A stretch of DNA of 52,664 nucleotides from GCF_002087085.1 NZ_MWQY01000025.1:1-52664, one strand, 5' to 3'. Shown: positions 29,520 to 52,664, counted from the stretch's first letter. The notes: generated by a model from the sequence alone, not told the origin. Numbers and translations are program-made.

Positions 29520-30044
29520 TCAGTTCAGGTCGATACCTTTGAGCTCCAGGGAGCACTCTGCGGCTTTATCTATCTGTCCCGAACGATGGTAAACTGCACA
29601 GCGGAGGACCATCAGGGACGGATCGTCGGGATAGACTGTCTCTGCTCTTTCAATACGGCTGAGAGCCCCATCATGGTTTCCCAGGTCAAGCTGTTCCTCC
29701 GCCTCTTTTATGAGGCTCTCGAAGGAGGCGATACTGACATAGAGAACCTCCAGGGTACTGGAAAAATCCACCCGGGTTCGCTGTTCCTCGTAACCCTCCC
29801 TGCCGATCAGCAGCAGATGGGCACCCTTCGCCAGGGAAGGCGTAACAAATCGTCCGTTCAGGTCGGTGGAAGTCTCCAGCGTGCCGTCGATAAGGACCCG
29901 GGCACCCTGAACGGGCCGCCCGTGGGTATCGTAAACCATTCCTGTGAGGGGCGCCCTGTCACCCGGGGACGACGGTGCGGTAGAACAGGAAGCGGTAAAC
30001 AGCAGGATCAGCAGCAGGAGAAGTGAGCTATTTTTTCGGCACAT
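29520..30044 (-). CDS. Lipoprotein with carboxypeptidase-regulatory-like and TPR-like domains, last gene of the T2SS cluster
   Basis: Lipobox FTAS-C; GMVYD..GRPVQGARV...TDLNGRF...EGYE; helical C-terminus. Confidence 0.7.
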   Translation of the reverse strand: MCRKNSSLLLLLILLFTASCSTAPSSPGDRAPLTGMVYDTHGRPVQGARVLIDGTLETSTDLNGRFVTPSLAKGAHLLLIGREGYEEQRTRVDFSSTLEVLYVSIASFESLIKEAEEQLDLGNHDGALSRIERAETVYPDDPSLMVLRCAVYHRSGQIDKAAECSLELKGIDLN

Positions 30045-30103
30045 AAAGACTCCTTATTTACGGTCGCCATCGGCATGCTGCCTCCGGCTCCGCACAATTT
30101 TGT

Positions 30104-30586
30104 TCAGGGCCGGCGAAGCCGGTACTTTGCTCCCCGGTATTCCAGTATCAGCTCATTTTTTGTGGCGCTGATCAGCCTGTATTCACCCTCTGATTCCTCC
30201 GTGAGACCTACGAGTTTTTCAGGACGGCCTGCCATAAGGTAGTAAACAGGACGGCCCTGGATTACCGCTTCTCCCACGTAGCGAAGGGGAGGGAGAGGGG
30301 GAAGCGGTGAAGCGGGTTCCGGTGATGACGCTTCGCGGGTCTGCTCTTCAGGTGGCTTCGGATCCCTGGGACGGGCCGGAATGGGCCGGACTTCAAAGAG
30401 ATGTGAAAGATCATCCGGCGTAGAGTGCTGCCAGATTTGTGATGACGGAACCTGTACCGGTGTTTTTTTTCCATGCATCTGTGGCGGAATAACAGGGGGC
30501 TTGGAATCCGGCAGGGGCAGCAGGAAGCCCGCTGTAATAAAGCCTGCCGCGATAATCAGCCGGATAGCAGCTTGTTGAAATTTCAT
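30104..30586 (-). CDS. T2SS-associated bitopic Pro-rich protein (possible GspC/PilP analogue)
   Basis: N-terminal TM segment, Pro-rich linker, small beta domain (LRYVG...YYL...GEYRLISATKNELIL); 4-bp overlap with the upstream gene. Confidence 0.5.
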   Translation of the reverse strand: MKFQQAAIRLIIAAGFITAGFLLPLPDSKPPVIPPQMHGKKTPVQVPSSQIWQHSTPDDLSHLFEVRPIPARPRDPKPPEEQTREASSPEPASPLPPLPPLRYVGEAVIQGRPVYYLMAGRPEKLVGLTEESEGEYRLISATKNELILEYRGAKYRLRRP

Positions 30587-31146
30587 TCTTTTGCCTCCGG
30601 AGATTTTGGGCCCTGCACAATATCGAAGGCAATATCCAGCTGTCCCGGGGTGCTGCTGGCGCTGATCATGAGACTCGTAACATTCCAGCAGGAATGCTCC
30701 TGTGAAAGTTCCTGTAAAAAGCGGAGAAGATCTTCGGCGGCGGCGTTCCCGGCAAAGGAGAAACCCGGGACATCCTTCCGACTTTCTCCTCTCTGTCCTG
30801 TCAGGGGACGGTAACGGCGGACCCTTACGGAATGCACCTGCAAAAGTTTCAGTACCGACTCGCCCAGGGAGTACGCGTCGGGGGAGGACTCGGCGCTGAC
30901 AGATTTGAGGCGGGCGGCAAGGGCGTCGCGTTTCCGACGCAGGACTACGGGTGAGGCTGTATCTGTGCTGCGCGCCGTCGTTTGAATAAGCTCCCGTTGC
31001 GCTGCGATGCTGCCGCTGACTTCGGTATAGCGCAGGTAAAAACGGATAAAGCCTGCGGCAGCAAGAGCGATCAGGGCGGTGAAAAGAAGGATCTTTATGA
31101 AGAGCCTCTCCCGTCTGGTCAGGGAGGGTTTACCGTTTTTATTCAT
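30583..31146 (-). CDS. GspM/PilO-like inner-membrane platform protein
   Basis: LTRRER followed by a TM segment, coiled coil and LLRFLQEL domain; position after the GspL-like gene. Confidence 0.6.
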   Translation of the reverse strand: MNKNGKPSLTRRERLFIKILLFTALIALAAAGFIRFYLRYTEVSGSIAAQRELIQTTARSTDTASPVVLRRKRDALAARLKSVSAESSPDAYSLGESVLKLLQVHSVRVRRYRPLTGQRGESRKDVPGFSFAGNAAAEDLLRFLQELSQEHSCWNVTSLMISASSTPGQLDIAFDIVQGPKSPEAKE

Positions 31147-32192
31147 TCGTCCTCCCGTTCCGTTGTGAACCGACCAGCCGGAGTAAAACAGCCGCTAAGC
31201 CGATAGCGGGAACGATATGGACCCTCAGGAGATTCCTGAAGGATGCGCACCTCCTGGAAAACGATATCGGTGAAGCCGGACTCCCGGGAAAGGGCATCTC
31301 CCAGTCCCAGGGCGCTTTCCCGGGAATCGTCGCTGCTGAGTTCCAGGGTAAAAGCGTCTCCCCGGGTAGTCAGGTTTCGGATTCGAGTCCCTCGGGGCAT
31401 CAGGGGGACAAGGCGGTTCAGAAAAAGCCACGGGTCAATATGCGCTGCTGTTTCAGCCTCCTGCAGCCGGTTTTCCAGCGCTTCGATCTCTGCTTTGAGT
31501 GCGGCAGCCGTCTCGATGCGCTCGTTCTCGTCCCGGGTAAGGCGGGACAGCACGGTGAACTCGGCTTCCCGGTCGATCAGGAGGCGCTCCCCGTAGATCC
31601 CAAGCCCCGAGAGGATGGCAACACCGGTAAGAAGGGCTCTGATACCCAGGGACATTCGGGTATTCTGCTTTACGCTGAAGGCGCCGCGATACCCCTTTAT
31701 ACTCTTTTGAATCCTTGTAGCGGCGGTGAGGGGAGAACAGATCTTCCAGCTGTTCCTGTCAGCCTCGGGGTAGACACTGTCTGCAGTCTCCGCCGGCAGG
31801 GAGGAGAGGCGGTAGTTGTCGTCCGTATCCCGGATCAGGCTGTCTTTCAGAGATCCGCTGTATTCCAGCTCCAGGCTTTGCCCCCGGCGGGGGTACCCAC
31901 GGTCGATACAGTGAAGCAGGGGGACGTACACGATTGCCTCCGGCTGAGCGCCGCGGATTTCTTCGATCTCCCGCCGGGAGACAAGCACACTCAGAACAGC
32001 TCCCGAGGTTCCCGGCAGCAGCCTGCTTTCCCAGAGAATGTCCTCCATGGAGCCGGGGTAGAGTTCGGGCAGCCGGAACTCCACGGCCCTGAGGCGTTCT
32101 GATTTCTTGAGACCGGGAAAAACCGACAGCACCAGACGATAGCTGTCTCGGGGGAGCAGGACTGCACGTTTCGGCAGACGTGAGCTTACCAT
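31143..32192 (-). CDS. GspL/PilN-like protein
   Basis: Cytoplasmic domain, TM segment, coiled coil, then a PilN-like segment (LNRLVPLMPRGTRIRNL). Confidence 0.6.
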   Translation of the reverse strand: MVSSRLPKRAVLLPRDSYRLVLSVFPGLKKSERLRAVEFRLPELYPGSMEDILWESRLLPGTSGAVLSVLVSRREIEEIRGAQPEAIVYVPLLHCIDRGYPRRGQSLELEYSGSLKDSLIRDTDDNYRLSSLPAETADSVYPEADRNSWKICSPLTAATRIQKSIKGYRGAFSVKQNTRMSLGIRALLTGVAILSGLGIYGERLLIDREAEFTVLSRLTRDENERIETAAALKAEIEALENRLQEAETAAHIDPWLFLNRLVPLMPRGTRIRNLTTRGDAFTLELSSDDSRESALGLGDALSRESGFTDIVFQEVRILQESPEGPYRSRYRLSGCFTPAGRFTTEREDE

Positions 32193-33259
32193 GGCAGTAC
32201 CTCATAAACAGTACGGTACTCCCTGTGCAGCTCTCCCTCAGGACCCCGCTTATCGGGAATACGGGCGACTACCCGGATCAGGCGGGACGCATCTTTTTCC
32301 ACGCTGATTTGCCAGAACCAGGTGACAGTCCCCATATACGCGAAAAGCCGATTCTGCTCTTTCGGGAGGATGATGTTTCCTCCCTCATCTTTCTCCTGTA
32401 CCGGAATCATGTCAGGGAGTTCCTCCTGCAGTATGGCCCGGGAACCCCGCAGGGAGCTGATCTCCCGGGCAACGGCTTCCGGGGCTGTCACCCGGAAGGC
32501 AGGGTAGGAAATAATCTGTTTCAATACCCAGTCCGGAGTAAAATGTATGTTGACGGAAGGAAAGGCATTGATGCAGGGAAAAACCCGGTCGAACCAGTGT
32601 ACCCCGACAAACTCTTCAAGCTCTTCGGGCTTGACCAGGGTGACTGTCCTGCGGCGTTCCCGCAGTTTGTGGTGAAACTCTTCCGCCGCAGCTTCGTTCC
32701 CGGTTATCTCGGCGAAGACTTTTTTCAGGCTGAACTCGTCGGCGGTGTTGATGTTCCAGTATCCCCGGGAAGTCGCGTAGTTTGCAAGGAACTCCTCCTT
32801 GAAGACGTTACCGAAGCGAGCCAGGATATCCACGGCAAAACCATCGTCCTCCCGGTCCTGCTGAAAGGCGTCGGCTCCCATTCCCGGCAACAGGAAGGAA
32901 CGGACCTCTGTTTCGCTTATCATCTTTGTGTTCATGGAGTTTATGGAAAAGCGGCTGGAGATATCCTCCAGCGTAACAGTGCAGCTCTCCTCGCTCTCCA
33001 GGAGAGCTATATCGGTAAAGACCGCACTTCCGGACCAGTCCGGTTCAGACGGATCCAGTTCCTCAAGGAATTCCTGGACGGAGTCGGCAATTTTTATCAT
33101 CTCGGCGGACTTTTTGGTGGAATCTCTGAAAGAGGCAAGCTGCCGCCGTTGTGTCCAGGCCATGGAAGCCGCGGAGAGGGTGAGTCCGGTGGAGATAATC
33201 AGTAGCACGAGGGCGACTGCTGTAATGCTGCCCTCGTCGGCGTGTTGCCTGCTTCTCAC
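32186..33259 (-). CDS. gspK: GspK-like minor pseudopilin
   Basis: EG|SITAVALVLLII (no Glu5), LEDISSRFSIN and WNINTA HhH-like motifs. Confidence 0.7.
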   Translation of the reverse strand: MRSRQHADEGSITAVALVLLIISTGLTLSAASMAWTQRRQLASFRDSTKKSAEMIKIADSVQEFLEELDPSEPDWSGSAVFTDIALLESEESCTVTLEDISSRFSINSMNTKMISETEVRSFLLPGMGADAFQQDREDDGFAVDILARFGNVFKEEFLANYATSRGYWNINTADEFSLKKVFAEITGNEAAAEEFHHKLRERRRTVTLVKPEELEEFVGVHWFDRVFPCINAFPSVNIHFTPDWVLKQIISYPAFRVTAPEAVAREISSLRGSRAILQEELPDMIPVQEKDEGGNIILPKEQNRLFAYMGTVTWFWQISVEKDASRLIRVVARIPDKRGPEGELHREYRTVYEVLPW

Positions 33260-33762
33260 CGGGAATCCTCCATAAGGGAGTGTGTGCCGAAGACAACGCA
33301 GATTTCCGGGAGTCTCCCTTCGGTATCCAGCAGCAGGCGAAAGCCGCCTTCTGCTTCCTGGTTTGCTCCCTCAAATCGGGGAGTCCAGGTTACGGGAAAG
33401 CTGAGACGGGAGAGCTCGCCGCCGCAATTGACACGAAGTTCTCCCGATCCGATTTCAAGATGCAAGGTATTTTCCCTGACTCCGTCGAGCCAGTTAACTG
33501 TGAGGGACTCAGGGAACAGAGCCATATCCGGACCTTCCGTCCACCAGGGCCCCTGAATCCGGGCAGCCATGAGCCTGAGTTCACGGTCCAGCAGCGCCAC
33601 GGAGGCACTCTCCCTGCTGCCTGAGCGGATAGTAAAAGGAGCTCTGAAAAGGCCGAGAACCAGCACCGCCAGGGCTGAAGCGCTGATTGCAGCGATAAAA
33701 AGGGCGGCGATGGTTTCCATGTAGCTGAAGCCTTCGTCTCCGCGCCGGGATGAACTCCTCAT
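33256..33762 (-). CDS. GspJ-like minor pseudopilin
   Basis: Prepilin motif EG|FSYMETIAALFI. Confidence 0.65.
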   Translation of the reverse strand: MRSSSRRGDEGFSYMETIAALFIAAISASALAVLVLGLFRAPFTIRSGSRESASVALLDRELRLMAARIQGPWWTEGPDMALFPESLTVNWLDGVRENTLHLEIGSGELRVNCGGELSRLSFPVTWTPRFEGANQEAEGGFRLLLDTEGRLPEICVVFGTHSLMEDSR

Positions 33763-33959
33763 CGGGAAGCCTCCCGGGAGGAAGGGCAGGAGATTTCGTT
33801 ACGCCTGGACACAAGGGTATACAGTCCCTCCTTACTTGAGGCGGAATCCCGCAGGGTTGCGGCAAGGAGTGTACCCAGGGGAAGAGCGAGAAGGGTAATC
33901 AGGGCCAGAGCGAGAAGAGCGTCCAGCAGGGCGTATCCTTCCTCGTGCTTGTGCTTCAT
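33759..33959 (-). CDS. GspI/H-like minimal minor pseudopilin
   Basis: EG|YALLDALLALALI prepilin-like motif; packed between gspG and the GspJ-like gene. Confidence 0.6.
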   Translation of the reverse strand: MKHKHEEGYALLDALLALALITLLALPLGTLLAATLRDSASSKEGLYTLVSRRNEISCPSSREASR

Positions 33960-33961
33960 TG

Positions 33962-34453
33962 TCAATGGCTCCAGCTCGCGATATCCGCGTCCTCTCCTTC
34001 TCCTCCCTCTGCGCCGTCGGCCCCGTAGCTGACAATGCCGTAGGGGAGTCCATCAGGTCCCGGTACCTTGTACTGGTAGGGATTCCCCCAGGGGTCTTTT
34101 TCAAGGGGTTTTTCCAGGTAGGGACCGTTCCAGGAGTCCGGTATCGGCGAGGAGGCAGGTTTTGTAAAAAGGGCCTTGAGCCCCTGGTCCTGGGAAGGAT
34201 AGCGGCCGCAGTCAAAAAGGTAGGCATTCAGGGCCAGGTTAAGGGCTTCGATCTGGTTTCCGGCGGCCGCCTTCTTCGCCGTGGCGATGTACCTGAATCC
34301 CATAAAGCCTACAGTGGTGGAGAGGGTTAATACAATTGCCAGTACGATGATGGTCTCGATAAAGGTCCAGCCCTCATCCCCTTTTCTCCCTGCTGTGTTC
34401 GTTCTGCCTGCATCAGCATTTTCTTTGCCGGATTTCGGTAAACGTCGTATCAT
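33962..34453 (-). CDS. gspG: Type II secretion major pseudopilin GspG
   Basis: EG|WTFIETIIVLAI, ALNAYLFDCGRYPS..QGLKAL, WNGPYL, DPWGNPYQY, SYGADGAEGGEGEDADI. Confidence 0.92.
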   Translation of the reverse strand: MIRRLPKSGKENADAGRTNTAGRKGDEGWTFIETIIVLAIVLTLSTTVGFMGFRYIATAKKAAAGNQIEALNLALNAYLFDCGRYPSQDQGLKALFTKPASSPIPDSWNGPYLEKPLEKDPWGNPYQYKVPGPDGLPYGIVSYGADGAEGGEGEDADIASWSH

Positions 34454-34484
34454 CTCTGGTCCCTCAAATCTGCTGAAAGTAAAA

Positions 34485-35687
34485 TCAGAATAATTCCCCG
34501 AAGCCCGAAAGCAGGGGAAGCACAAAAACAACAACCCCGGTAAACAGCAGGGCGCCGGTCAGGATAATAAGGAGCGGTTCGGCGAGACTGCTGACCCGGG
34601 TAAGAAAGGTTTCGTACTCTCCCTGGTACCAGGTTTTGAGTCCGGTAAAGACCTCCTCCACCCGTCCCGTGCGTTCTCCCAGGGCGAGCCAGCGAACCAG
34701 GCGCGGAGGGAACACCCCGGAGGATTCAAAGGCCGCTGAAGGACGCTCTCCCCGGAGAATGTTTTCCCGTGCCTGACGGAGTCCGGCAGAAAATGCCCGA
34801 TTCTCCGTTACATCCGCCGCCTGATACAGGGCATCCTCCAGACTGACCCCGGAGGAGCTGAGTACCTCCAGGGCAAAGACCAAGTTGACCGTGTCTCCCA
34901 GAGACGCGAGCCGGCCGGCCAGGGGCAGACGCAGCAGAGCGCGGTCCGAGGCAAGGCGGAAGGATCCGGAAAACCTCCGAAGGAGCAGTACGGTCAGTCC
35001 TGCTGAAAGCCCCCCGCCGACGATTGTCCCCGACAGAACTGAGAATAAGCTCATGCGCCCGGTGATCAGAAGCATCTGCTCAGGACTCTGGCCGAGACCG
35101 GCCAGGATTTCTCCCATCTTCGGGGCGACGAAAATCAGGAGCGAAAGGCTTCCGATTATTACTGCCGCCAGCACCACCGACGGATAGAGCAGGGCGTTAA
35201 CGAACTTGTCCTTGAGTTCTTTACGGGTTCGCAGATAATCCGCCAGGCCCGGGAGCACCTGGGCCAGGGAACCGACCTTTTCTCCAACCTTGATGAGACC
35301 GGAATAGATCCGGGGGAAGCTCAAGGATTCCGCAGTCCCGGAAAAGGAGTCTCCCCGTTCAAGTCCGGCGGCAAGCTCTTCCACAGTCCTGCCCGCTTTT
35401 CCCTTTGTATAGATGGTACGGGCAATCTCAAGCCCCTCTTTAATATCCAGGCCCGAGCGGTAGAGCAGCGCCAGGGTCTGGGTAAGTTCCAGTACAAAGC
35501 CCGCGGGAGGGGATGATATTCTGCCTGTTCCGTGTTCGCCTGCTGCGGCATCGAGCTCTTCCACCGTAAGGAGCACACAGCCGTTCCGGGGAATCAAGGC
35601 CGCGGCATCATAGCGGGAATCCGCATTGACAATTTTGACCCGCCGGGCTCCTGAGCCCTCTGCGTAACGCAGGCGATAGACCGGCAT
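34485..35687 (-). CDS. gspF: Type II secretion inner-membrane protein GspF
   Basis: Two T2SSF repeats (GEKVGSL...ALLYP; GERTGRV...LAEP). Confidence 0.9.
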   Translation of the reverse strand: MPVYRLRYAEGSGARRVKIVNADSRYDAAALIPRNGCVLLTVEELDAAAGEHGTGRISSPPAGFVLELTQTLALLYRSGLDIKEGLEIARTIYTKGKAGRTVEELAAGLERGDSFSGTAESLSFPRIYSGLIKVGEKVGSLAQVLPGLADYLRTRKELKDKFVNALLYPSVVLAAVIIGSLSLLIFVAPKMGEILAGLGQSPEQMLLITGRMSLFSVLSGTIVGGGLSAGLTVLLLRRFSGSFRLASDRALLRLPLAGRLASLGDTVNLVFALEVLSSSGVSLEDALYQAADVTENRAFSAGLRQARENILRGERPSAAFESSGVFPPRLVRWLALGERTGRVEEVFTGLKTWYQGEYETFLTRVSSLAEPLLIILTGALLFTGVVVFVLPLLSGFGELF

Positions 35688-35689
35688 AA

Positions 35690-37180
35690 TCAGAGTACCC
35701 CCGCCCGCTGCAGTTCTTCGAAGGATGACAGCCCTTCCGCAGCCAGGGTAAGTCCCCGCTGCTTAAGGCCGATCATTCCCTGTTCCCGCAGGTGATGGTC
35801 GAGGGCTGCGGATGTGCCGGCGGAAGCTATTATTCCGGCGGCTTTCCGGTCTACCATAAAGAACTCTGCCGCAGCGATCCGCCCGCGGTATCCCTGATTG
35901 TCGCAGTCCGGGCAGCCGGAAGCGTAAAACTCCTCTTCAGGGCTGGTGAGTCCCGCCCTGTGGTAAAGCTCCGTGTAAAAATCGCCCATGGGACGGGAGC
36001 TGCGGCAGGCGGGGCAGAGCCTGCGGGTAAGACGCTGGGCAATTACCCCCCGCAACACCGCAGCGATCAGGTAGGCTTCGACTCCCAGGTTGATGAGCCT
36101 GCTGACCGCAGAAACCGCGTCGTTGGTATGCAGGCTCGAAAGGACCAGGTGTCCGGTAAGGGCCGCCCGGACCGCGAGCTCCGCCGTCTCGGAATCCCGG
36201 ATTTCTCCCACCAGGATTACATCAGGGTCCTGCCTGAGCACCCGGCGCAGCAGGGTACTGAAACCGAGGCCGATGCGCTCATCCGTCTGGATCTGGTCCA
36301 CCCCGTCAATCAGATATTCCACCGGGTCCTCGATGGTGACGATCTTTATTCCTTCGCTGTTGATACTGCGCAGCATGGCGTTCAGACTTGTGGTTTTGCC
36401 GCTTCCCGTGGGGCCTGTCACCAGAACCATGCCGTGGGGGTTTTTTAAGAGCTCAGCGATGCCGGCAAGACAATCCTCCGGCAATCCCAGATCCGTCAGG
36501 CTGAAGGCCGAATCATCGGCATTGAAGATCCTCAGGACAATGGATTCCGCCCCGGCTCCGGCGGCGGTGGGAACACAGGAAACCCGGATGTCCACATTGC
36601 TCCCCGCCATGTTTACCGTAAGGCGACCGTCCTGGGGACGTCGGCGTTCCATGAGGTTGAGCCCCGCCATGACCTTGATGCGGGAGGCGAGCCCGGAAAA
36701 ACGCTCCGCCGGCAGGGTCTGATGCACCCGGAGCACGCCGTCTATGCGGTAGCGGACAATGGTTGTATCGGCGAAGGCCTCAAGGTGTATGTCCGAGGCC
36801 CGCCGCCGGATGGCTTCGATGCAGATGCTGTTTACCAGGTTGATGACCGGCGCGTCGGAAGCCAGGGCCTCCAGGTCGAGTTTATCCTTGTATCCTGAAT
36901 TGACCGGGCCGGCGGACTCATCGTCGCCGGAGCCCATAAGGCGCCCGAGCCAGGCGGAAAACTCGGCGGAATCCAGCGTTTTTACTGTAATCGGCTTCCG
37001 GTGAAAATCGCGCAGGATACGCTGCAGTTCGCAGGTGTCCCCGTCAACGGCGCCGACTGTTACGCGGCTCTCGTCTTCCTGCAGTTTAAGGACCCTGTTG
37101 GCGCGAATAAATTCCCGGCCGTACTGCTCTTTACCCCGGGGAAGAGGGGCGTAGGCAAGGAGTGAGACCGTACCATTCAT
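35690..37180 (-). CDS. gspE: Type II secretion ATPase GspE
   Basis: ASDIHLE, PQDGR, Walker A GPTGSGKT, TIEDPVE, LRQDPDVILVGEIRD, TGHLVLSSLHTN, tetracysteine CPAC/CPDC. Confidence 0.93.
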   Translation of the reverse strand: MNGTVSLLAYAPLPRGKEQYGREFIRANRVLKLQEDESRVTVGAVDGDTCELQRILRDFHRKPITVKTLDSAEFSAWLGRLMGSGDDESAGPVNSGYKDKLDLEALASDAPVINLVNSICIEAIRRRASDIHLEAFADTTIVRYRIDGVLRVHQTLPAERFSGLASRIKVMAGLNLMERRRPQDGRLTVNMAGSNVDIRVSCVPTAAGAGAESIVLRIFNADDSAFSLTDLGLPEDCLAGIAELLKNPHGMVLVTGPTGSGKTTSLNAMLRSINSEGIKIVTIEDPVEYLIDGVDQIQTDERIGLGFSTLLRRVLRQDPDVILVGEIRDSETAELAVRAALTGHLVLSSLHTNDAVSAVSRLINLGVEAYLIAAVLRGVIAQRLTRRLCPACRSSRPMGDFYTELYHRAGLTSPEEEFYASGCPDCDNQGYRGRIAAAEFFMVDRKAAGIIASAGTSAALDHHLREQGMIGLKQRGLTLAAEGLSSFEELQRAGVL

Positions 37181-39369: not shown

Positions 39370-39484
39370 ATCAACAATTTAAGGATTGACGTTATCAGGT
39401 ATAGTGCCAGAAAGATTGATGGAAGTCAAATCGTAAAATGTGAAAAAAGGAAAGATTTGGGTAATTATAAAAAGTAAAAAAATC

Positions 39485-39513
39485 TTGTGATATCACAAAA
39501 CCAGTGCTACTAT
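39485..39513 (+). promoter_or_regulatory. Candidate tatA promoter overlapped by a perfect 14-bp palindrome
   Basis: TTGTGA (39485-39490), 17-bp spacer, TGc-TACTAT extended -10 (39508-39513). Palindrome TTGTGATATCACAA at 39485-39498. Confidence 0.5.
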
Positions 39514-39545
39514 TATGTCCAGAAAGTTTATTTAAGGAGATTGAT

Positions 39546-39731: not shown

Positions 39732-39745
39732 CAATCGTTTTATAT

Positions 39746-42725: not shown

Positions 42726-45700
42726 AAAGGAATCATCGGATAAAAGTCAGGATATCGATCAGAATATTGACAGACGAGAGTTTCTATCCATTAGTCTAAA
42801 GACGATACTCGGTTCCTCTGTTGGCATTGCATCGTTTATTTCAACAAAAGATACGTTATATGCAGATGATAGAGGCTGCGCTGACTACTGCGGAGGAGAT
42901 TGTATTACCTATGGGAGCGGAGGATGTACGTGTGATGGGGATGATGACAGTTGCAATGACAGTTGTGATGATTGTTCTTCCGACTATTCAGAAGAAATAG
43001 CCGAAGCTCAAGAAGCCATAGCCGCTGCGGAAGAGAAAATTGAAGACGCACAGGCGGCTTATGACGAGGCGATCGCCGCCGGTGATGAAAGGGCTGTGCA
43101 GGCAGCGCGGGATGAAATCCGGGCAGCTGAGGCTTCCCGGGAAGAAGCCGCTGAACGGGTAAGCGAAGCAGAGGCAAAGCAACGGGAAGCCAAGGAAGCC
43201 GCCGCACAGTTTCGGGCAAAATTGGCTCAGACCCAGAACCAGGCTAACAGTACCGTTACCGGCGATCCGGTACGTATAGCCACAGGGGTGTTCCATACGG
43301 AAGTAACTGACCTGTCAATACCGTATCTCGGTTCAAACATTACCTTGCAGCGTCAGTATGAAAGCGATAAAACCTACGGTAAATCTTTCGGTACCGGCTG
43401 GAACTTCTCTTACGATACCCGCATCATCCTTGGTGTGGACCCTGATGCTGCTGAAACTGCGGAACTACTGACAGGATTCGCCGAAACTCAGCGCAGCGAC
43501 TACTATCAGAGGCAAACCGGTCTTGCTGGCGCAACAAGCTCCATGAACACGGCCAAAACAAAGGTCGATGCCGCCCAGGCTACGATTGCGGCTGCACTGC
43601 AGTCAGCCCAGACCGCCCTGGCCAAGGCTCGAGCATCCCACAGCTCATCGCTTATTGCACAGGCCCAGGCGCTGGTGAATCAGATTTCCGGTTCCGGTGG
43701 CTTGACCGGCCAGGCGGCTGAGGTTGAAACCAGGGTCGATGCTGTTTTGACCGAGCTTGCCGATTCAGACGCGACTCTGGAAGAGCTGGATACGCTATGC
43801 GTGGAGCTGGAGAATCTTGCATCGGATGCTAACGACAGAAACGACTATGCAAGTGCAGCTGCGGAACGAAACCTCTACGTAACCGACGGAAACGAACCGC
43901 CTTCCTTTCTCAATACCGGCAACGGTACCTGCACCTGGGTGGATCAAAGTGGAGTTCCCCATTATTACACTCTTGACAAGGCTCCGGACTACAGTAGTGA
44001 TGTACAGTATACGGATGGCAGCAGAAATTACTTTCCCCAGGGCGCCCTCGGCATCCCCCAGCTGCCTATCGATGACGTGTTGCATCTGAACTCACACGGA
44101 ACATGGACCCTTGTGCGCAAGGACCTGCATCATTTTGAGTTTTCGTTTCTCGGGTTGCTCAGCTCGATCAGTGACGCCAACAATAATCAGCTTGCATGTA
44201 CGTACAGCAAGGGTTTGCTGTCCGTGATAAATGATGATTTTGGGAGAACGATCAGGATAACACGGAGCGGAAAAAAGATCTCTGCAATAATATCACCCGA
44301 AGGGTATTCCATCAGTTTTAGCTATAACCTCGACGGAATGCTTGCATCCGTTACCGACCCTGAGGGCGATACTATATCCTACGAATACGACGGTTCGCTT
44401 CTTACCGCTATTGTCAAACCGGATGGCAAACGACGGCGATATATCTATGAATCCCTGTCCGGGACCATGGTTGTTAGCCAGGCAATCGATGAAGAGGGCA
44501 TGAGCGAATATTTCCGCTATTACCCTGCTTCCGGCTACAGCGAATATGAAAACGCTTCCGGTATTGTTGAACGACACTACTACAACGAGCGCAAGCTGGA
44601 AACAAAGGTCGAATACGGTGACGGCGGGACCATCTCCATGGAGTATGATGAGAACAACAACCTGATCAAGCGTACCAACGAGGTCGGTGAAACCTATCAT
44701 TTTACCTATGACGGGCGACGTAACCTGATTGAGTCGATTGACCCACAGGGTCATGCCCAAAAATGGACCTATAACGACATAGACAAGGTAAGCTCCTATA
44801 CTGATCGCCTGGGACGGACTACCGGCTATACCTACGATTCGAAAGGCAATCTTATCGTGCAAGAACTCCCCGACGGCGCTGAAATACATTACGAATATAA
44901 TGATCGAGGACAACGTACCAAAACCACCGACCCCCGCGGCAATTCAACCCTGTTCAGGTATGATTCCCATGGCTACCCGGCATCGGAAACAAGCCCCGAC
45001 GGTACAGTTCGCCGTTTTAAGAACGACCTAACCGGGAATATCCTGGAAGTCACCGATCAGGCAGGATATACAACCACCTATACCTACCGCAAAGACAAAA
45101 AGCTGGTTTGCCTGACCGATCCGGAAGGCAACACTGAAACCTACGAGTACAACAAGCGTAAAGACCTTGTAGCCAAAACCGACAAACGCGGCAATCGTAC
45201 AGAGTTTACTTACGATGGACGGCATCTATTGATCAAGGCAACCAACCCCCTGGGGGAAACCGCAGAGTACAGCTATCGGGCCGACGGCAGGATGATACAA
45301 AAACTCATCGATAAAAAAAGCACCACCAGCTACACTTATGATTCCCGCGGCAACCTGGCCTCCGTAACGCAGCTGGAAACCAACAGCACCGTCCGTTACG
45401 AATATGACGCAGCCCAGCGCCTTACCAAAGTAACCGACCCTAACGGAAACGCAACCTGGTACGACTACACCCTGCTCGGCGATATCGCCAGAGAGGAAAA
45501 CGCCCTGGGTAACATCCGAAGTTTTACCTACGACGCTGAACAAAACCGTACCTACCAGACCGACTTTGCCGGAAACACAACAGAATACCGCTATGATGTC
45601 CGTAACCGCCTGACCGAGTTAATCGACCCCGACAACAAACGGGAACAGTATACATATGACCTAACCGGCAACCGCACCGCGGTAATCGACAAGAACGGCA

Positions 45701-48700
45701 ACACTACGGTTTTCGAATACGACGCCCTGAACCGGCTTATCAAACAGACCGATCCCTTGAACAACACAATCAGGTATGAGTATGAGCCCAGAGGCTTGGT
45801 GAGCAAGCGGACCGACCGGAACGGCGGAACCGTTCTGTTTGCCTACAACTCCCTCGGCACAATCGTAACCGCCACCGACCCTGCAGGCAACACAATCGAA
45901 ACCACCTACAACGAGACCTCCCAGCCCCGTACCCGGAAAGACCGGAACGGTAACATTACAGCTTTCGAATATGACTCCTTAAACCGTCTGATTATAACCC
46001 GCGACCCCTACGGCCACGAAACCAGGCGCAGCTACAATTACCTCGGCCTTGTCGCCGCCATAACCGACCCCCTGGGCAACACCCGTACTTTCGACCATGA
46101 CCCTGCAGGCCGCCTGGTAAAGACAACTGACCCCTTAGGTGGAACGAAACAGTATACGTACGACCCTGCCGGCAACCTTATTTCGTACCAGGATGAAATG
46201 AAGCGGGAAACCGGCTATACCTACGATCAACTCAATCGACTGAAAAGCAGCACCAATGCCCTGGGAGAAAATTACAGCTACACCTACGATGTTAACGGCA
46301 ACCTCATAAGGGAAACCGACCCGGAAGGCAGCGCCTACCAGTATGAATATGACAAACTGAACCGTCTGAAAAAAGAGATAAACCGCCTGGGCGCAGCACA
46401 AACCTACACCCGGGACCCGGTCGGGAACCTGCTGAGCAAAACAGACTTCAACGGAGATCTCACCGCCTATACCTACGACCCGGTAGACCGCCTAATAAAC
46501 ACAAGCTTTGCAGACGGCAGTACCAAAATCTACAGCTATGATGCTGAGGGCAACCTTACCTCAGCCGAGAACCCAGAAAAGCAGCTGGCCTTCAGCTATG
46601 ACCCGGTAAACCGCCTGAGTGAAGTCTATGACTCCAGCGTCGACGACACCGTACGCTACACCTATGATGCCGAAGGCAATCGCCTCTCCACTCACTGGAA
46701 CGAGGGCAACCGCACCATAAACCGCAGCTACGGTAAAGCCAACGAACTGTTAACCGTAACCGATCCCGACGGCACCACCACCGCTTTTACCTACGATGCC
46801 CTGCTGCGGGAAACCGAATGCAAACGTCCGAACGACGTGGTAACAGAAACAGTCTACGACCCTGCAGGAAGGATAACCAGCATAAAGAACTTCGAAGACA
46901 AACACTGGCGGGATACCCTCTTAAGCTCGTTTGCCTACCTCTACAACGCTGCCGGGGAACGTAGGCATCAGATAGATGAAGAGGGGAACATCGAAACTTA
47001 CCAGTACGATGCAGTGGGACGCATTGCCGAAGCTCAGTATCCGTTCAACAGCGGAAAACCTGCCGAAGACTTTGATCAGCGCCTGCGTTTCGGCCTCTAT
47101 CCTGAAGAGGGGAGTAGTAGCTCTCATAACCACGGACATGGACACCACAACGACGAGCGTTACACCTTCAACCTGCCCCGAACCCCGGACAACGACTTTA
47201 TCAACAAGCTCAAAGATATTGCCGAACCCCAGGAAGAGGTCTTCCGGTACTACCGGAAAAAGAAAAAGGATTACCACCCGCGATGGCGCATTCAGCCCGG
47301 TGACGGTGCAACCCGGTTTGCCGCGCGGCTGTCTCTGGATCAAACTTCGCGGGAACAACTCCGAACAGCCTATCAGGACCTGACCGGCAGCCGCAGGCAC
47401 TTCGACGCAGACCCGTGGGTATGGACTGAAAACTTTACCTACGACAGCAGAAACAACCTCACCAGCAAAGCCAACGGCTGGGGAGCCGTACCCTTCAGCT
47501 ACAACGCTGCCAATGAGTTAACACAAGCCGGAGAGAGAACCTACACTCATGATGCCAACGGCAACCTTACCCGGGAAGCCTTAAATGAGGTAAGCGCCGA
47601 CTACAGCTACACCCCGGAGAACCGTATCGAACAGATAGAAACCGAAATTGAAGCCTTCATGAGTCACCACTGCGATGGTGAAACCGGGGTACGCTATACC
47701 TATGATTCCCTGGGACGGCGAAGCTCTCGGACGGCCTATACAACCAAGAGTAATCATGGCTGGCACAACGAGATTGAGTGGAACAAGGAATCGAACCAGA
47801 GTTACCTCTATGACGGTCTGTCTTTCAATGTATTAGCAGAATTAAAAGACACCCAGTTTAGGGTGGACACTCACGGAAGAACTCATCGCCGCACCTCACG
47901 TTACCAGTGGCAACCTGTTAGTGAATACCTCTACGGCAATGGGAGCAGGCTGATCAGTAAAACCGCCTTTGCCACAAACGAACGCTTCGGCAATCGCTAC
48001 CCCCGTCATACCGACACAGACTATTATCTGCAGGATGTGTTGGGATCGGTAGTCGGGATTACCGATGAACGGGGGAACCAGACGGAGGCCTACAGCTTTG
48101 ATGTATGGGGCAACCACTATGATCGACCCAACCAGACAAACAGCACTCATACCGATGCTGGCTGGAATGCGTTGCCGGCCACGTTATTCGGCTTCAACGG
48201 GAAGAAGTTTGATCCGAAGGTCGGACTGTATGATTATGGTTTCAGGGATTATAAGCCTGCCATTAACAGGTGGACCACCATAGACCCAATACGCGCGGGG
48301 AAGAACTGGTACGCCTATGTGGAGAATGATCCGGTGAATTGGGTTGATTTGTGGGGGTTGCTGCCGGAGGTGGGAGGGACTGGTCAGGTTGATGATCCGT
48401 TGGAACGAGCAATTATTGATAATTTAGACTTCGATGAACCTGGTAGCAAGTGTGATGAATTTTGTACCGAAGTTATGGATGATGCAGGCTTGACTCCCAA
48501 TGATTGGCCTGATCCTGATGATTATAAAGTTGGTGAAAACCCTGAAGATATACCTAATTATATTGATCATTATAGTAGTCAGACACAAGATGTACCAAAT
48601 ACTGGTGCAAACGCAGTGATGATGGAAACCGGTCACCCAGCAGAGCATATGGGTATTGTAGATGTTGAAGAGGATGGTTCTATTTCGGGAGCTCATTATA

Positions 48701-48795
48701 GTGGTGGAGAAGTCGAACAATTCGAATATGACAATCAAAATGATTTTGAAGACGCTTTTGTATATGAAGATTTTCATTATCTTCCTTTGGAGTAG
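42715..48795 (+). CDS. Rhs/YD-repeat polymorphic toxin: Tat signal, Cys/Asp-rich segment, coiled coil, DUF6531-like domain, YD repeats, Rhs core, C-terminal toxin
   Basis: DRREFL; GDPVRIATG...FGTGW; many YD/TDPxG repeats; core FNGKKFD..GLYDYGFRDY...RWTTIDP...YAYVENDPVNWVDLWGL; AAGGAG RBS. Confidence 0.95.
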   Translation: MKNEKESSDKSQDIDQNIDRREFLSISLKTILGSSVGIASFISTKDTLYADDRGCADYCGGDCITYGSGGCTCDGDDDSCNDSCDDCSSDYSEEIAEAQEAIAAAEEKIEDAQAAYDEAIAAGDERAVQAARDEIRAAEASREEAAERVSEAEAKQREAKEAAAQFRAKLAQTQNQANSTVTGDPVRIATGVFHTEVTDLSIPYLGSNITLQRQYESDKTYGKSFGTGWNFSYDTRIILGVDPDAAETAELLTGFAETQRSDYYQRQTGLAGATSSMNTAKTKVDAAQATIAAALQSAQTALAKARASHSSSLIAQAQALVNQISGSGGLTGQAAEVETRVDAVLTELADSDATLEELDTLCVELENLASDANDRNDYASAAAERNLYVTDGNEPPSFLNTGNGTCTWVDQSGVPHYYTLDKAPDYSSDVQYTDGSRNYFPQGALGIPQLPIDDVLHLNSHGTWTLVRKDLHHFEFSFLGLLSSISDANNNQLACTYSKGLLSVINDDFGRTIRITRSGKKISAIISPEGYSISFSYNLDGMLASVTDPEGDTISYEYDGSLLTAIVKPDGKRRRYIYESLSGTMVVSQAIDEEGMSEYFRYYPASGYSEYENASGIVERHYYNERKLETKVEYGDGGTISMEYDENNNLIKRTNEVGETYHFTYDGRRNLIESIDPQGHAQKWTYNDIDKVSSYTDRLGRTTGYTYDSKGNLIVQELPDGAEIHYEYNDRGQRTKTTDPRGNSTLFRYDSHGYPASETSPDGTVRRFKNDLTGNILEVTDQAGYTTTYTYRKDKKLVCLTDPEGNTETYEYNKRKDLVAKTDKRGNRTEFTYDGRHLLIKATNPLGETAEYSYRADGRMIQKLIDKKSTTSYTYDSRGNLASVTQLETNSTVRYEYDAAQRLTKVTDPNGNATWYDYTLLGDIAREENALGNIRSFTYDAEQNRTYQTDFAGNTTEYRYDVRNRLTELIDPDNKREQYTYDLTGNRTAVIDKNGNTTVFEYDALNRLIKQTDPLNNTIRYEYEPRGLVSKRTDRNGGTVLFAYNSLGTIVTATDPAGNTIETTYNETSQPRTRKDRNGNITAFEYDSLNRLIITRDPYGHETRRSYNYLGLVAAITDPLGNTRTFDHDPAGRLVKTTDPLGGTKQYTYDPAGNLISYQDEMKRETGYTYDQLNRLKSSTNALGENYSYTYDVNGNLIRETDPEGSAYQYEYDKLNRLKKEINRLGAAQTYTRDPVGNLLSKTDFNGDLTAYTYDPVDRLINTSFADGSTKIYSYDAEGNLTSAENPEKQLAFSYDPVNRLSEVYDSSVDDTVRYTYDAEGNRLSTHWNEGNRTINRSYGKANELLTVTDPDGTTTAFTYDALLRETECKRPNDVVTETVYDPAGRITSIKNFEDKHWRDTLLSSFAYLYNAAGERRHQIDEEGNIETYQYDAVGRIAEAQYPFNSGKPAEDFDQRLRFGLYPEEGSSSSHNHGHGHHNDERYTFNLPRTPDNDFINKLKDIAEPQEEVFRYYRKKKKDYHPRWRIQPGDGATRFAARLSLDQTSREQLRTAYQDLTGSRRHFDADPWVWTENFTYDSRNNLTSKANGWGAVPFSYNAANELTQAGERTYTHDANGNLTREALNEVSADYSYTPENRIEQIETEIEAFMSHHCDGETGVRYTYDSLGRRSSRTAYTTKSNHGWHNEIEWNKESNQSYLYDGLSFNVLAELKDTQFRVDTHGRTHRRTSRYQWQPVSEYLYGNGSRLISKTAFATNERFGNRYPRHTDTDYYLQDVLGSVVGITDERGNQTEAYSFDVWGNHYDRPNQTNSTHTDAGWNALPATLFGFNGKKFDPKVGLYDYGFRDYKPAINRWTTIDPIRAGKNWYAYVENDPVNWVDLWGLLPEVGGTGQVDDPLERAIIDNLDFDEPGSKCDEFCTEVMDDAGLTPNDWPDPDDYKVGENPEDIPNYIDHYSSQTQDVPNTGANAVMMETGHPAEHMGIVDVEEDGSISGAHYSGGEVEQFEYDNQNDFEDAFVYEDFHYLPLE
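45658..46289 (+). repeat. Copy 1 of a ~630-bp near-identical direct repeat (Rhs YD region)
   Basis: Aligns at a constant offset of 4753 to 50411-51042 with scattered substitutions. Confidence 0.9.
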
Positions 48796-48799
48796 ACTT

Positions 48800-50220: not shown

Positions 50221-50357
50221 GGCAAGGGATTGGAGGGGCGCCGAAGGCGGACCCCGCAGGGACTGAAAGGTCCGAGGAGGCCGGAGCGATAGCGGAGCCC
50301 CGGAAAGCCCGGTCCTGCACCTACTTTTCAATGTTGAAAAGTAGGTGCAGGGATGCC
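50221..50357. repeat. GC-rich multi-hairpin REP-like element ending in a perfect 18-bp inverted repeat
   Basis: CGCC-GAA-GGCG, CCC-GCA-GGG, GGAC-TGAAAG-GTCC, enclosing GGGGC/GCCCC, and CCTGCACCTACTTTTCAA-TG-TTGAAAAGTAGGTGCAGG at 50314-50351. Confidence 0.6.
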
Positions 50358-50392
50358 GCCAGACAGAACCGCGCAAATCCGAAAAAAAATCC

Positions 50393-52664
50393 GTGCGAAT
50401 CCGCGGTATCGACCTAACCGGCAACCGTACCGCGGTCATCGACAAGAACGGCAACACTACGGTTTTCGAATACGACGCCCTGAACCGGCTTATCAAACAG
50501 ACCGATCCCCTGAACACAACAATCAGGTATGAGTATGAGCCCAGAGGCCTGGTGGGCAAGCGGACCGACCGGAACGGCGGAACCGTTCTGTTTACCTACA
50601 ACTCCCTCGGCACAATCGTAACCGCCACCGACCCTGCAGGCAAGACAATCGAAACCACCTACAATGAGACATCTCAGCCCTGTACCCGGAAAGACCGGAA
50701 CGGTAACACTACAACCTTCGAGTACGACCCCTTAAACCGTCTGATTATAACCCGCGACCCCTACGGCCACGAAACCAGGCGCAGCTACAATTACCTCGGC
50801 CTTGTCGCCGCCATAACCGACCCCCTGGGCAACACCCGAACTTTCGACCATGACCCTGCAGGCCGCCTGGTAAAAGTAACTGACCCCTTAGGTGGAACGA
50901 AACAGTATACGTACGACCCTGCCGGCAACCTTATTTCGTACCAGGATGAAATGGAGCGGGAAACCGGCTATACCTACGATCAACTCAATCGACTGAAAAG
51001 TACTACCAATGCCCTGGGAGAAAACTACAGCTACACCTACGACGAGAACGGCAACCTGAGGGCGGAAATCGACGGCGAAGCGAAAGCCCACAGCTATGAA
51101 TACGACAAACTGAACCGCATTATACAGGAGATAGACCGGCTCGGAAACACCCAGAGTTACACCTACGACGCGGAAGGGAACATCCTGAGTAAGAAAGATT
51201 TTAACGGTGATCAGTCAGAATACTTCTATGACAAACTGAACCGCAGAATCGAAACCCGTTTTGCGAACGGAGAGACCAAACGTTTTGAATATGACCCGGC
51301 AGGCAACCTTGTAGGCGCGGAAAACGGCGAAAAAGCCTTGAGCTTCGCCTATGATCCGGTAAATCGTCTGACAGAAGCAAGCGACGGCCTGCTGAACGAA
51401 ACAACCCGCTACGCCTACGACCCTGCCGGGAACCGCATCCGCGCCGAAAGGAAGAAGGCCAATCGCATAACAACCTACACCTATGGAAAAGCGAACGAGC
51501 TGCTCTCGGTTACCGACCCGGACGGCAAAACCACCGGCTACCGTTACGACGCCCTTGGACGCGAAACGTATAGAACGACCCCGAACGACGTGGTAACAGA
51601 AACAGTCTACGACCCTGCAGGAAGGATAAGCGCCATAAAGTCCTACGAAAAGAAGCGGGGACACAACACGGTCCTCTACTCCTTTGCTTACCTCTACAAC
51701 GAAGCGGGAGAGCAGACATTCCGGATAGACGAAAAGGGCGAGGTCATGAGCTTTGCCTACGACGAAGCGGGACGCATAGCCGAAGTGCGCTACCCCTTTG
51801 AAAGCGGGAAGCCCGAGACCGACTTTGAACAGCGGCTGAACTTCGGCCTCTATCCTGAGGAGAAAACGAGTACGTCCAGAGGAAACAAGCGGCATGGGGA
51901 TGGTGACGAAGGAATGAGCTTTGCGCTGCCGCAGGTAGACAATGACCACGAGCTTAAAGAACGGCTTAAGGAACGTTCCGTCCCCAGGATGGGGGTCTAC
52001 AAAAAGTACCGGGGATTATCGTCGCATGAACATCCCCGCTGGCATGTGACCCCGGGTGAGGGAGCGACGCCCTTCGCGACCAGACTGAACCTTGATCCTG
52101 AAACAAAGAACCAACTCCAGGACGCCTATCGGGAGATCAACCCTTACAGCCGCCGTTTCAACGACCATCAGTATCAATGGACCGAGACTTTCGGCTACGA
52201 TACACGAAACAATCTTTCTACAAGCGCCAACGGCTGGGGGAGGGTGGACTACAGCTACGATGAAGCCCACCGGCTAAAGCAGACAGGAAACAGAAACTAC
52301 CTGCATGACAAAAACGGCAACCTGATAAAAGAGTACCTGGGCGAAGAAGACGGCCCCCTAAGCGCTGACTATACTTATACGCCGGAAAACCGCATAGCCC
52401 AAATCGAAACACACTTCGAAGGCTTCCTGCCCGGACAACTGGAAGCCGACAGCGGAGTCCGCTACACCTACGACGCCCTGGGCCGGCGAAGCTCCCGGGC
52501 ATCCTACCTGAGCAAAAGCTATGGTTTCAGTAAACAACTGGAATGGAACAGGGAGAGTACGGAGACCTACTTATACGAAGCCCTGAGCTTTGACATCTTG
52601 GTGGAATATCGAGATACTGAGTATGAAGTGAACCGACGAAGCAGACACTTCTTCCCATCCTTCT
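50393..52664 (+). CDS. Orphan (5'-truncated) Rhs cassette, runs off the window end
   Basis: Hand translation is open from GTG 50393 (frame opens at 50345) to the window end. Homology to the main Rhs begins at 50411, equivalent to residue 982; no signal peptide or N-terminal domains. Confidence 0.88.
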   Translation, partial: MRIRGIDLTGNRTAVIDKNGNTTVFEYDALNRLIKQTDPLNTTIRYEYEPRGLVGKRTDRNGGTVLFTYNSLGTIVTATDPAGKTIETTYNETSQPCTRKDRNGNTTTFEYDPLNRLIITRDPYGHETRRSYNYLGLVAAITDPLGNTRTFDHDPAGRLVKVTDPLGGTKQYTYDPAGNLISYQDEMERETGYTYDQLNRLKSTTNALGENYSYTYDENGNLRAEIDGEAKAHSYEYDKLNRIIQEIDRLGNTQSYTYDAEGNILSKKDFNGDQSEYFYDKLNRRIETRFANGETKRFEYDPAGNLVGAENGEKALSFAYDPVNRLTEASDGLLNETTRYAYDPAGNRIRAERKKANRITTYTYGKANELLSVTDPDGKTTGYRYDALGRETYRTTPNDVVTETVYDPAGRISAIKSYEKKRGHNTVLYSFAYLYNEAGEQTFRIDEKGEVMSFAYDEAGRIAEVRYPFESGKPETDFEQRLNFGLYPEEKTSTSRGNKRHGDGDEGMSFALPQVDNDHELKERLKERSVPRMGVYKKYRGLSSHEHPRWHVTPGEGATPFATRLNLDPETKNQLQDAYREINPYSRRFNDHQYQWTETFGYDTRNNLSTSANGWGRVDYSYDEAHRLKQTGNRNYLHDKNGNLIKEYLGEEDGPLSADYTYTPENRIAQIETHFEGFLPGQLEADSGVRYTYDALGRRSSRASYLSKSYGFSKQLEWNRESTETYLYEALSFDILVEYRDTEYEVNRRSRHFFPSF
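50411..51042 (+). repeat. Copy 2 of the ~630-bp near-identical direct repeat (start of the orphan Rhs)
   Basis: Begins GACCTAACCGGCAACCG, as at 45658; strong divergence starts after about 51042. Confidence 0.9.

Follow-up and report, generated by a model that had tools for sequence, protein, structure and literature searches.

An accessory Tat–radical SAM–Rhs island beside a core type II secretion cluster: a candidate maturation and export module for a polymorphic toxin

Why should the gene of an Rhs toxin stand in one operon with a twin-arginine translocation (Tat) system and a radical S-adenosylmethionine (rSAM) enzyme? The question is raised by a stretch of 52,664 nucleotides (NZ_MWQY01000025.1, hereafter the window), which is the entire contig C18 of a 4.2-Mb draft genome (G000, 97% complete) and in which such an operon lies beside a gsp cluster resembling a type II secretion system (T2SS). 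The answer put forward here, with moderate confidence, is an accessory island encoding an Rhs whose N-terminal trafficking module joins a CXXX-repeat rSAM target to a twin-arginine signal, the toxin being cross-linked by the rSAM enzyme and then exported by its own Tat. The genes of the island and their surroundings are as follows.

39370..39545: divergent intergenic region, AT-rich, 176 bp (GC 0.295)
39546-39731, plus strand: tatA, 61 aa (PF02416, 46.8 bits, cut-off 21; TIGR01411, 46 bits, below the 53.9 cut-off)
39746-40480, plus strand: tatC, accessory second copy of the genome (PF00902, 158.6 bits; TIGR00945, 142.9 bits, above the 132.7 cut-off)
40446/40473-40736, plus strand: tatB-like gene (TIGR01410, E 1.3e-8, 35.3 bits, below the 56.5 cut-off; no Pfam match)
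40737-41912, plus strand: radical SAM/SPASM enzyme, 391 aa, PapB-like (PF04055; NF047865)
41925-42725, plus strand: p266, accessory protein of a very rare family, 266 aa, possibly SPASM-like (no Pfam or NCBIfam family, a relaxed Pfam scan included)
42715-48795, plus strand: Rhs, 2026 aa (20 YD-repeat stretches; TIGR03696, 65.7 bits)
42715..42864, plus strand: Rhs aa 1-50, twin-arginine-type signal, DRREFLS and then a mildly hydrophobic stretch
42871..42990, plus strand: Rhs aa 53-92, Cys/Asp-rich CXXX-like stretch, proposed thioether site
42991..48360, plus strand: Rhs body, with an Ala/Glu-rich helical linker, DUF6531, the YD-repeat shell and the Rhs-associated core
48361..48792, plus strand: Rhs C-terminal toxin tip, ~144 aa
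48800..49861, plus strand: WG-repeat lipoprotein, candidate periplasmic immunity protein (PF14903, 123.2 bits, 4 stretches)
50345..52663, plus strand: orphan rhs fragment, 773+ aa, lacking an N-terminus of its own and running past the contig end (PF05593, 11 stretches)

The initial annotation of the window had described the gsp cluster and a tat/rSAM/Rhs/WG operon as diverging across 176 bp, with plus-strand gaps of 14 nt or less, and every named gene was found in place. Window 1-27000 was covered by an ORF list. The junctions are 14 nt between tatA and tatC, an overlap between tatC and tatB, 0 nt between tatB and the rSAM gene, 12 nt between the latter and p266, an 11-nt overlap of p266 with rhs, and ~4 nt between rhs and the WG-repeat gene. 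The open reading frame (ORF) of tatA extends from 39504, and its start was set at 39546 because an AAGGAG ribosome-binding site precedes that ATG; the 176-bp spacer is bounded by this codon and the gspD start (39369). The ORF of the WG-repeat protein extends from 48662, with a likely lipoprotein start at 48800. Promoter-like and terminator-like sites were no more frequent than in shuffled sequence, and the operon structure is therefore drawn from gene spacing alone. The spacer also contains a perfect palindrome of 14 bp (39485-39498), which was dropped, being no rarer than chance (matched in 10 of 100 shuffles) and missing from the corresponding loci of G002, a second genome of the same genus.

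The N-terminus of the Rhs carries the two elements on which the proposal turns. The Tat consensus is S/T-R-R-x-F-L-K, and the first residues of the protein (DRREFLSISLKTILGSSVGIASFIS) fit RR-x-F-L followed by a mildly hydrophobic stretch, which bears out, at the level of the motif, the twin-arginine signal that had been ascribed to the Rhs. Behind it comes the Cys/Asp stretch (CADY-CGGD-CITY...CTCD...CNDS-CDDC), the richest 40-aa segment holding 8 Cys and 11 acidic residues. Genome-wide, 52 segments with at least 8 Cys per 40 aa were listed, and on manual reading only the Rhs N-terminus is Cys/Asp-rich, the others being ferredoxin-type motifs or spurious frames. A precursor peptide encoded separately would find no space in the operon. 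TIGR04117 ("CXXX repeat radical SAM target") matches Rhs residues 1-110 at E 7.1e-7 (29.2 bits, covering aa 5-90) and the N-terminus of the G002 Rhs at E 6.5e-4, both below the 50-bit cut-off; since TIGR04117 is a "paralog"-type model of one lineage, these matches establish a resemblance rather than membership. At this level of comparison, the Rhs N-terminus resembles proteins already classed as rSAM targets. In G002 the Rhs starts with DRKEFLNISLKT (DRKEFLN) and continues with the Cys/Asp stretch (CSGD)7, and in both genomes Asp residues 2-4 positions after a Cys are abundant. A second full-length Rhs of G000 (contig C1:206518-216657, 3380-aa frame) has an ordinary Sec-type signal, so that the Tat-type signal is special to the Rhs bearing the Cys repeat; the tip of the C1 protein shows HLH and GVD motifs, which we take to resemble those of M23 peptidases.

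The enzyme encoded two genes upstream of rhs is of a kind that could act on such a stretch. It starts right at its CX3CX2C motif (C13-C17-C20), and no N-terminal RiPP (ribosomally synthesised and post-translationally modified peptide) recognition element (RRE) domain is therefore present. By the SPASM Cys spacing rule, a 7-Cys signature can be assigned to C261, G274-x4-C279, C327-x2-C330-x5-C336-x3-C340 and C357, and it is invariant in a 4-member alignment. PF04055 scores above its cut-off and the SPASM family PF13186 below it (17.3 vs 21.5 bits). The top NCBIfam family is NF047865, PapB, with 153.2 bits, the next families reaching at most 90 bits; the third-best is TIGR03906, of the QhpD type. 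According to the available part of the article describing it, PapB joins Cys to Asp or Glu through thioethers, Cys-Xn-Asp being accepted for n = 0-6 (PMC9413430).

The product of the gene between the enzyme and the Rhs, p266, has five relatives among 1.84 billion representative proteins, and its family was found in G000 only in a sample of 401 genomes of the phylum. Four of its Cys are invariant (C163, C182, C222, C225). An AlphaFold2 (AF2) model shows an alpha/beta fold of moderate confidence (predicted local distance difference test, pLDDT, 62) that matched nothing in the PDB at E <= 0.001 (Foldseek); a wide VIA-align comparison returned generic alpha/beta folds (Z <= 7.5), two rSAM barrels at Z 6.6 not standing out among them. 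Among its language-model neighbours is a SPASM-domain protein (score 0.90), a lead. The comparison of p266 with the CXXX accessory maturase was non-significant (hhalign probability 2%; nothing by BLASTP), that with the SPASM region of the rSAM of its own operon gave a probability of 0.2%, and a complex prediction with Rhs aa 1-110 was uninformative either way (score 0.02). A search of the genome contigs for rSAM and p266 returned relatives at <= 24% identity only.

The distribution of these genes within the genus is that of an accessory unit. The Tat-rSAM-Rhs combination occurs in two of six genus members (G000 and G002), exactly those with a second tatC; four other genus members and one further family member are without island-type tatC and without the rSAM at E <= 1e-20. 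In G001 and G005, of the same genus and 96-97% complete, no TatC was found by Pfam family, so that Tat is not a core function in the genus. The island TatC is 32% identical to the housekeeping-type TatC on contig C1. A GC content of 0.385-0.41 is common to tatC, tatB, the rSAM gene and p266, that of the WG-repeat gene being 0.334. Tight spacing, the common low GC of tat, rSAM and p266, and co-presence in G000 and G002 support the earlier proposal that Tat, rSAM and Rhs make up one unit. In G002 the island keeps its gene order, there too beside gsp. Identity between the two genomes is 91-97% for tatA, tatC and tatB, 46% for the rSAM, 38% for p266 and 53% for the Rhs; as the G002 Rhs again has the signal and the Cys/Asp stretch, the design appears to be kept while enzyme, partner and target diverge together.

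Outside the genus, the island TatC belongs to a clade with relatives (P0046-P0092) at 43-55% identity, three of them named by source as Spirochaetes/Spirochaetales metagenome-assembled genomes. The clade is present in 14 of 401 genomes of the class, G000 and G002 included, the 12 others being at 38-50% identity. These 12 loci were compared and scored for rSAM genes within ~7 kb of tatC. Maturases of the rSAM type stand near the clade tatC in 7 of the 12, against an rSAM-domain match in none of nine loci that hold the other type of TatC (28-33% identical), the set of queries being identical. Of the seven, L048 and L049 hold a curated CXXX-repeat system (TIGR04115, TIGR04116, TIGR04119), three (L053, L054, L056) hold anSME/DynA-like rSAM and YcaO-like genes, and two (L057, L058) hold B12-rSAM genes. 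G187, G225, G158 and G173 hold the rSAM-linked TatC as an additional copy, G304, G020 and G018 as the only TatC found. In L053, L054, L056, L057 and L058 the clade tatC is directly followed by the gene of a 546-567-aa protein whose N-terminus, with a transmembrane and an amphipathic helix, is TatB-like; in four of these five proteins this N-terminus is fused to a CX3CX2C rSAM domain.

L057:10017-11675: TatB-rSAM fusion, CX3CX2C present
L058:5752-7410: TatB-rSAM fusion, CX3CX2C present
L053:2892-4595: TatB-rSAM fusion, CX3CX2C present
L054:4215-5855: TatB-rSAM fusion, CX3CX2C present
L056:8050-9735: ORF with the TatB-like N-terminus, lacking the Cys motif

The locus closest in design to the window is L048, from another family, where a 233-aa CXXX target (L048:5550-6251) lies directly upstream of the TIGR04115 rSAM gene and ~4 kb from tatA-tatC-tatB. 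This protein starts with MEKKEIRKDKDGFFSRDLDRREFFRAGAGIVLPSIALLGINITSGC (DRREFF, a hydrophobic stretch and a lipobox-like Cys) and ends with six CXXX repeats (CSAS-CRDS-CHRS-CSGD-CTGS-CSGW). The motif DR[RK]EF is common to it and to the Rhs proteins of G000 and G002, and, judged by these motifs, the L048 target and the Rhs N-terminus follow the same logic, an RR motif joined to CXXX repeats. Among proteins with an RR signal near the other rSAM-linked Tat loci, L048 is the sole clear case, most pattern matches being TatC itself. It may tentatively be proposed, with rather less assurance than for the island itself, that an accessory Tat clade of spirochaete-like bacteria is specialised for rSAM-cross-linked cargo, sometimes by way of TatB-rSAM fusions, and that in the genus of G000 an Rhs has taken over its module as N-terminal trafficking domain.

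On these grounds a sequence of events can be proposed. The PapB-like rSAM/SPASM enzyme, perhaps aided by p266, would first install Cys-Asp thioethers at about residues 53-92 of the Rhs, while the protein is still in the cytoplasm. The RR signal would then route the finished Rhs to the island TatA-TatC-TatB. Tat acts post-translationally and tolerates cross-linked or folded cargo, which suits a cargo whose completion depends on an oxygen-sensitive enzyme of the cytoplasm. Once in the periplasm, or once released by some route, possibly the single general T2SS, the Rhs would deliver its C-terminal tip, perhaps a cell-wall hydrolase, the WG-repeat lipoprotein would shield the producer, and orphan rhs cassettes would recombine in as alternative tips.

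The part of the protein that follows the proposed module is that of an ordinary Rhs toxin. The YD-repeat shell is covered by PF05593 (20 stretches, E 1.7e-136) and TIGR01643 (358.5 bits), with DUF6531 (PF20148) at aa 183-238 and the Rhs-associated core at aa 1813-1882 (TIGR03696, cut-off 32.5 bits), which ends ...DPVNWVDLWGL. No Pfam match was found for the tip at E <= 5, and its AF2 model is poor (single sequence, pLDDT 44). The language-model atlas neighbours of the tip include NlpC/P60 and CHAP clusters (0.92-0.95), a lead according to which it is possibly an NlpC/P60/CHAP-like cell-wall hydrolase. The signal of the WG-repeat lipoprotein ends in ILSC, and the two leads, the hydrolase-like neighbours and an immunity candidate of lipoprotein type, would fit a periplasmic cell-wall target. 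In G002 a tip nearly identical to that of the window occurs in an orphan pair, followed by a WG gene that is 96% identical, so that tip and WG gene travel together as a cassette; the main Rhs of G002 has another tip, with a small membrane protein encoded behind it. Within the window, orphan 50411-50710 and main rhs 45658-45957 are 95% identical over 300 nt, two further same-register repeat pairs of orphan and main rhs are 74-75% identical, and further Rhs ends lie on small contigs. The immunity gene and orphan cassettes named in the initial annotation are in keeping with this recurrence of the tip/WG pair and with the orphan rhs of both the window and G002, the protective function being predicted. 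As to type VI secretion (T6SS), the absence of PAAR and Hcp noted earlier for the window holds genome-wide and extends to TssC, with no match for PF05943 (TssC), PF05488 (PAAR) or PF05638 (Hcp) in the 97%-complete genome; the families of VgrG and of type VII and type IX secretion were not searched.

Several observations weigh against an Rhs that is cross-linked and then exported by its own Tat. Concerning the signal, scans of the Rhs N-terminus against Pfam (aa 1-242, E <= 5) and NCBIfam (aa 1-110, E <= 1), in which the HMMER filters discard many weak short matches, listed no Tat-signal family; the curated Tat-signal profiles are presumably TIGR01409 and PF10518. The G002 signal has RK, not RR, and a 2026-aa Rhs, if fully folded into its shell, would probably exceed the known Tat cargoes in size. 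Concerning the target, the TIGR04117 match reaches 29 bits with a cut-off of 50 and falls within a stretch of biased composition, and a word search with the Rhs N-terminus matched itself only and no other Rhs. The enzyme stays below the cut-offs of PapB (153.2 vs 340 bits) and of TIGR04115 (54.4 vs 350 bits), and its close relatives number three among 5.8 billion proteins in a word-based search; two metagenome scans for relatives of the rSAM and p266 found nothing, and the role of p266 as rSAM helper is a guess. In G002 the rSAM gene (L021:17940-19115, minus strand), otherwise intact, is interrupted by one in-frame TAA, at codon 69, in the region of the GGEPTL motif; this copy may be decaying, the enzyme may be dispensable there, or a sequencing error may be involved. 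Finally, the full arrangement is confined to two genomes of one genus. The seven linked loci of the wider clade come from 6 genera and 4 families and are related, so that the counts do not represent independent events, and no Rhs was found in any of the 12 other loci.

The alternative that survives best, in itself unlikely, is a mosaic in which the rSAM may modify the Rhs while the tat genes are a hitch-hiking second general Tat, the Rhs leaving the cytoplasm through Sec or the housekeeping Tat. It draws on the Sec-type signal of the C1 Rhs, by which Rhs export in this organism needs no Tat in general, on the missing Tat-signal family, and on the 5 of 12 clade loci without an rSAM nearby. Against it stand the GC content that tat shares with the rSAM gene and p266, genes that abut without gaps, and a second tatC that among the genus members is found only alongside rSAM and Rhs. 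The rSAM linkage of the clade as compared with the other TatC type, the existence of TatB-rSAM fusions and the L048 target, which joins the RR motif to CXXX repeats, likewise speak for a Tat tied to the modified cargo.

A second alternative, a little less probable still, concerns the chemistry: the stretch may be metal-binding or disulfide-rich, or the rSAM may make alpha-carbon sactionine links or an oxidation, with Tat exporting a domain that is folded or loaded with a cofactor. Stretches rich in Cys and acidic residues are able to bind metals, and Tat typically carries cofactor-bearing proteins; moreover, an enzyme below every equivalog cut-off does not have its chemistry fixed by homology. 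PapB is nevertheless clearly the top family, and an enzyme type forming Cys-Asp/Glu links comes third. The Asp residues placed 2-4 positions after Cys in both genomes are like those of PapB substrates, as the latter appear in the accessible portion of PMC9413430.

The thioether and Tat proposal leaves the gsp cluster to be accounted for, which the initial annotation had taken for a T2SS dedicated to the toxin. Its features are these.

29520..39369, minus strand: T2SS-like gsp cluster, core-genome neighbour of the island (Pfam and NCBIfam matches, prepilin-like N-termini)
37177-39369, minus strand: GspD secretin (PF00263, 105.5 bits)
35690-37180, minus strand: GspE ATPase (PF00437, 406.7 bits)
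34485-35687, minus strand: GspF platform (Pfam family above cut-off)
33962-34534, minus strand: GspG major pseudopilin (TIGR01710, 123.3 bits, above the 88.85 cut-off)
30583-31146, minus strand: GspM-like gene, weak
in the gsp cluster, minus strand: CarboxypepD_reg/TPR lipoprotein

The T2SS parts present are thus a secretin, the GspE ATPase, the GspF platform and the GspG pseudopilin. GspD, GspE, GspF and GspG are above the Pfam cut-offs; GspG also passes its equivalog cut-off, GspD, GspE and GspF being below theirs. Two ORFs of the cluster without a family have prepilin-like N-termini. The relatives used for comparison were the four other genus members and the one other family member, and GspD is present in all five, at 48-95% identity, without second tatC and rSAM. 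The gsp genes have a GC content of 0.54-0.61, near that of the large contigs (~0.51-0.56) and unlike that of the island, and the region upstream of gspD varies among the four relatives examined. Distribution, native GC and differing upstream regions make the adjacency look like an insertion, and the island was probably inserted beside a core T2SS cluster. In G001, which is without the Tat-rSAM island, Rhs C-terminal fragments (L031:9342-13003) lie 9-13 kb from gspD on its upstream side, which marks a variable spot there; the site beside gsp seems to be a recurrent landing place for rhs material. A further observation concerns the end of the cluster, where the G002 orthologues (L021/L022) of window 27809-29452, 29520-30044 and 30104-30586 gave tblastn matches split in at least two pieces, which suggests frameshifts or indels in G000 or G002.

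A T2SS dedicated to the Rhs is improbable on distribution, GC and neighbourhood. The predicted linkage of Tat, rSAM, Rhs and gsp across genomes stood in part: tat, rSAM and Rhs occur together in G002, and the linkage failed for gsp in the five island-free relatives and for Rhs in the other Tat-clade loci. The least probable of the three alternatives is accordingly the self-contained pathway of Tat, rSAM, Rhs and the adjacent gsp genes, the toxin leaving through a T2SS of its own: the divergent arrangement over a common 176-bp spacer, the adjacency repeated in G002, the fact that the window secretin is the sole one of the genome (any secretin exit of the Rhs would be through it) and the common label of "T2SS" for RHS toxins with a signal peptide, in the available text of PMC3482391, stand against the evidence just given, the absence of any tblastn match to the window gsp proteins in the 12 other Tat-clade loci, and a folded Rhs shell that is perhaps too wide to pass a secretin. 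An exit of the Rhs from the periplasm by way of the general T2SS would still be conceivable.

The island shares features with several known systems. The CXXX-repeat rSAM systems (TIGR04115, TIGR04116 and TIGR04119, with TIGR04117 targets) are, to our knowledge, curated families without experimental characterisation. They have in common with the window a stretch with Cys at every fourth residue beside an rSAM/SPASM gene, to which come the TIGR04117-like Rhs N-terminus and the L048 copy beside a Tat operon of the same clade; they differ in their short stand-alone target, here replaced by a fusion to a 2026-aa Rhs, in the low TIGR04115 score of the window enzyme given above, and in TIGR04116 and TIGR04119, which have no match in the window operon, the unrelated p266 being found instead. 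With PapB/PapA (freyrasin) the window shares the top-scoring rSAM family and a putative substrate with Cys and Asp a few residues apart, as far as the accessible text of PMC9413430 describes that system; however, the window enzyme is not an equivalog and is without the leader-peptide/RRE architecture, and its putative substrate is a large toxin with a Tat-type signal.

In the QhpD/QhpC/QhpF system, QhpD thioether-cross-links QhpC in the cytoplasm and a dedicated transporter then exports it (PMC7876137, from the portion of the article available). By analogy, this is the closest worked precedent for cytoplasmic cross-linking followed by private export: common to both would be rSAM-made Cys-to-Asp/Glu thioethers and a dedicated exporter to the periplasm encoded in the same operon, but there an ABC exporter handles a 9-kDa enzyme subunit, here Tat would handle a toxin, and no qhp genes are present. 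CrpC, in the available part of PMC13692751, installs ranthionine links on the Cys-rich protein CrpA; it resembles the window system as a SPASM rSAM with a protein-sized Cys-rich substrate and differs in being archaeal (methanogens), neither an export link nor a toxin fusion being described in that part.

Among toxins, the Sec/WapA-type and "T2SS"-labelled RHS proteins, as presented in the available text of the 2012 polymorphic-toxin survey (Zhang et al., PMC3482391), have the same YD shell, Rhs core, variable tip with immunity gene, and orphan cassettes, with no T6SS; the window Rhs differs from them by its Tat-type signal, its Cys repeat, predicted to be enzyme-modified, and its own translocase. 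In 300,000 of the 357,715 characters of that survey the terms "twin-arginine", "TAT" and "radical SAM" occur 0 times. A literature search, with poor coverage of subscription journals, found no description of a route by Tat signal and rSAM maturation for an Rhs, the one match on that combination being, by its title, a Pectobacterium pangenome study, and none of a link between TatC and rSAM/SPASM, of CXXX-repeat rSAM systems or of twin-arginine RiPP precursors. Among the matches listed for Rhs and polymorphic toxins the export routes were T6SS or Sec-type, "Tat signal" appearing once, in the available part of a T6SS effector-immunity preprint. The N-terminal maturation and export module predicted for the window Rhs is read here as previously undescribed, the Rhs toxin itself being of a known kind.

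Polymorphic toxins are classed by the N-terminal module that sets their export, and a Tat signal with a cross-linked Cys repeat and its own translocase would add a route absent from the portion of the survey available (PMC3482391). If the proposal is true, RiPP-type rSAM chemistry would act on a 225-kDa toxin; no polymorphic toxin before it would have been Tat-dependent or rSAM-modified, and it would rank among the largest cargoes of Tat. The proposal would also offer a reason for a second Tat system, namely a cargo that an oxygen-sensitive enzyme must complete in the cytoplasm before it is exported. The TatB-rSAM fusions of the wider clade suggest that maturation and translocation may be physically coupled, which bears on the "proofreading" of Tat cargo.

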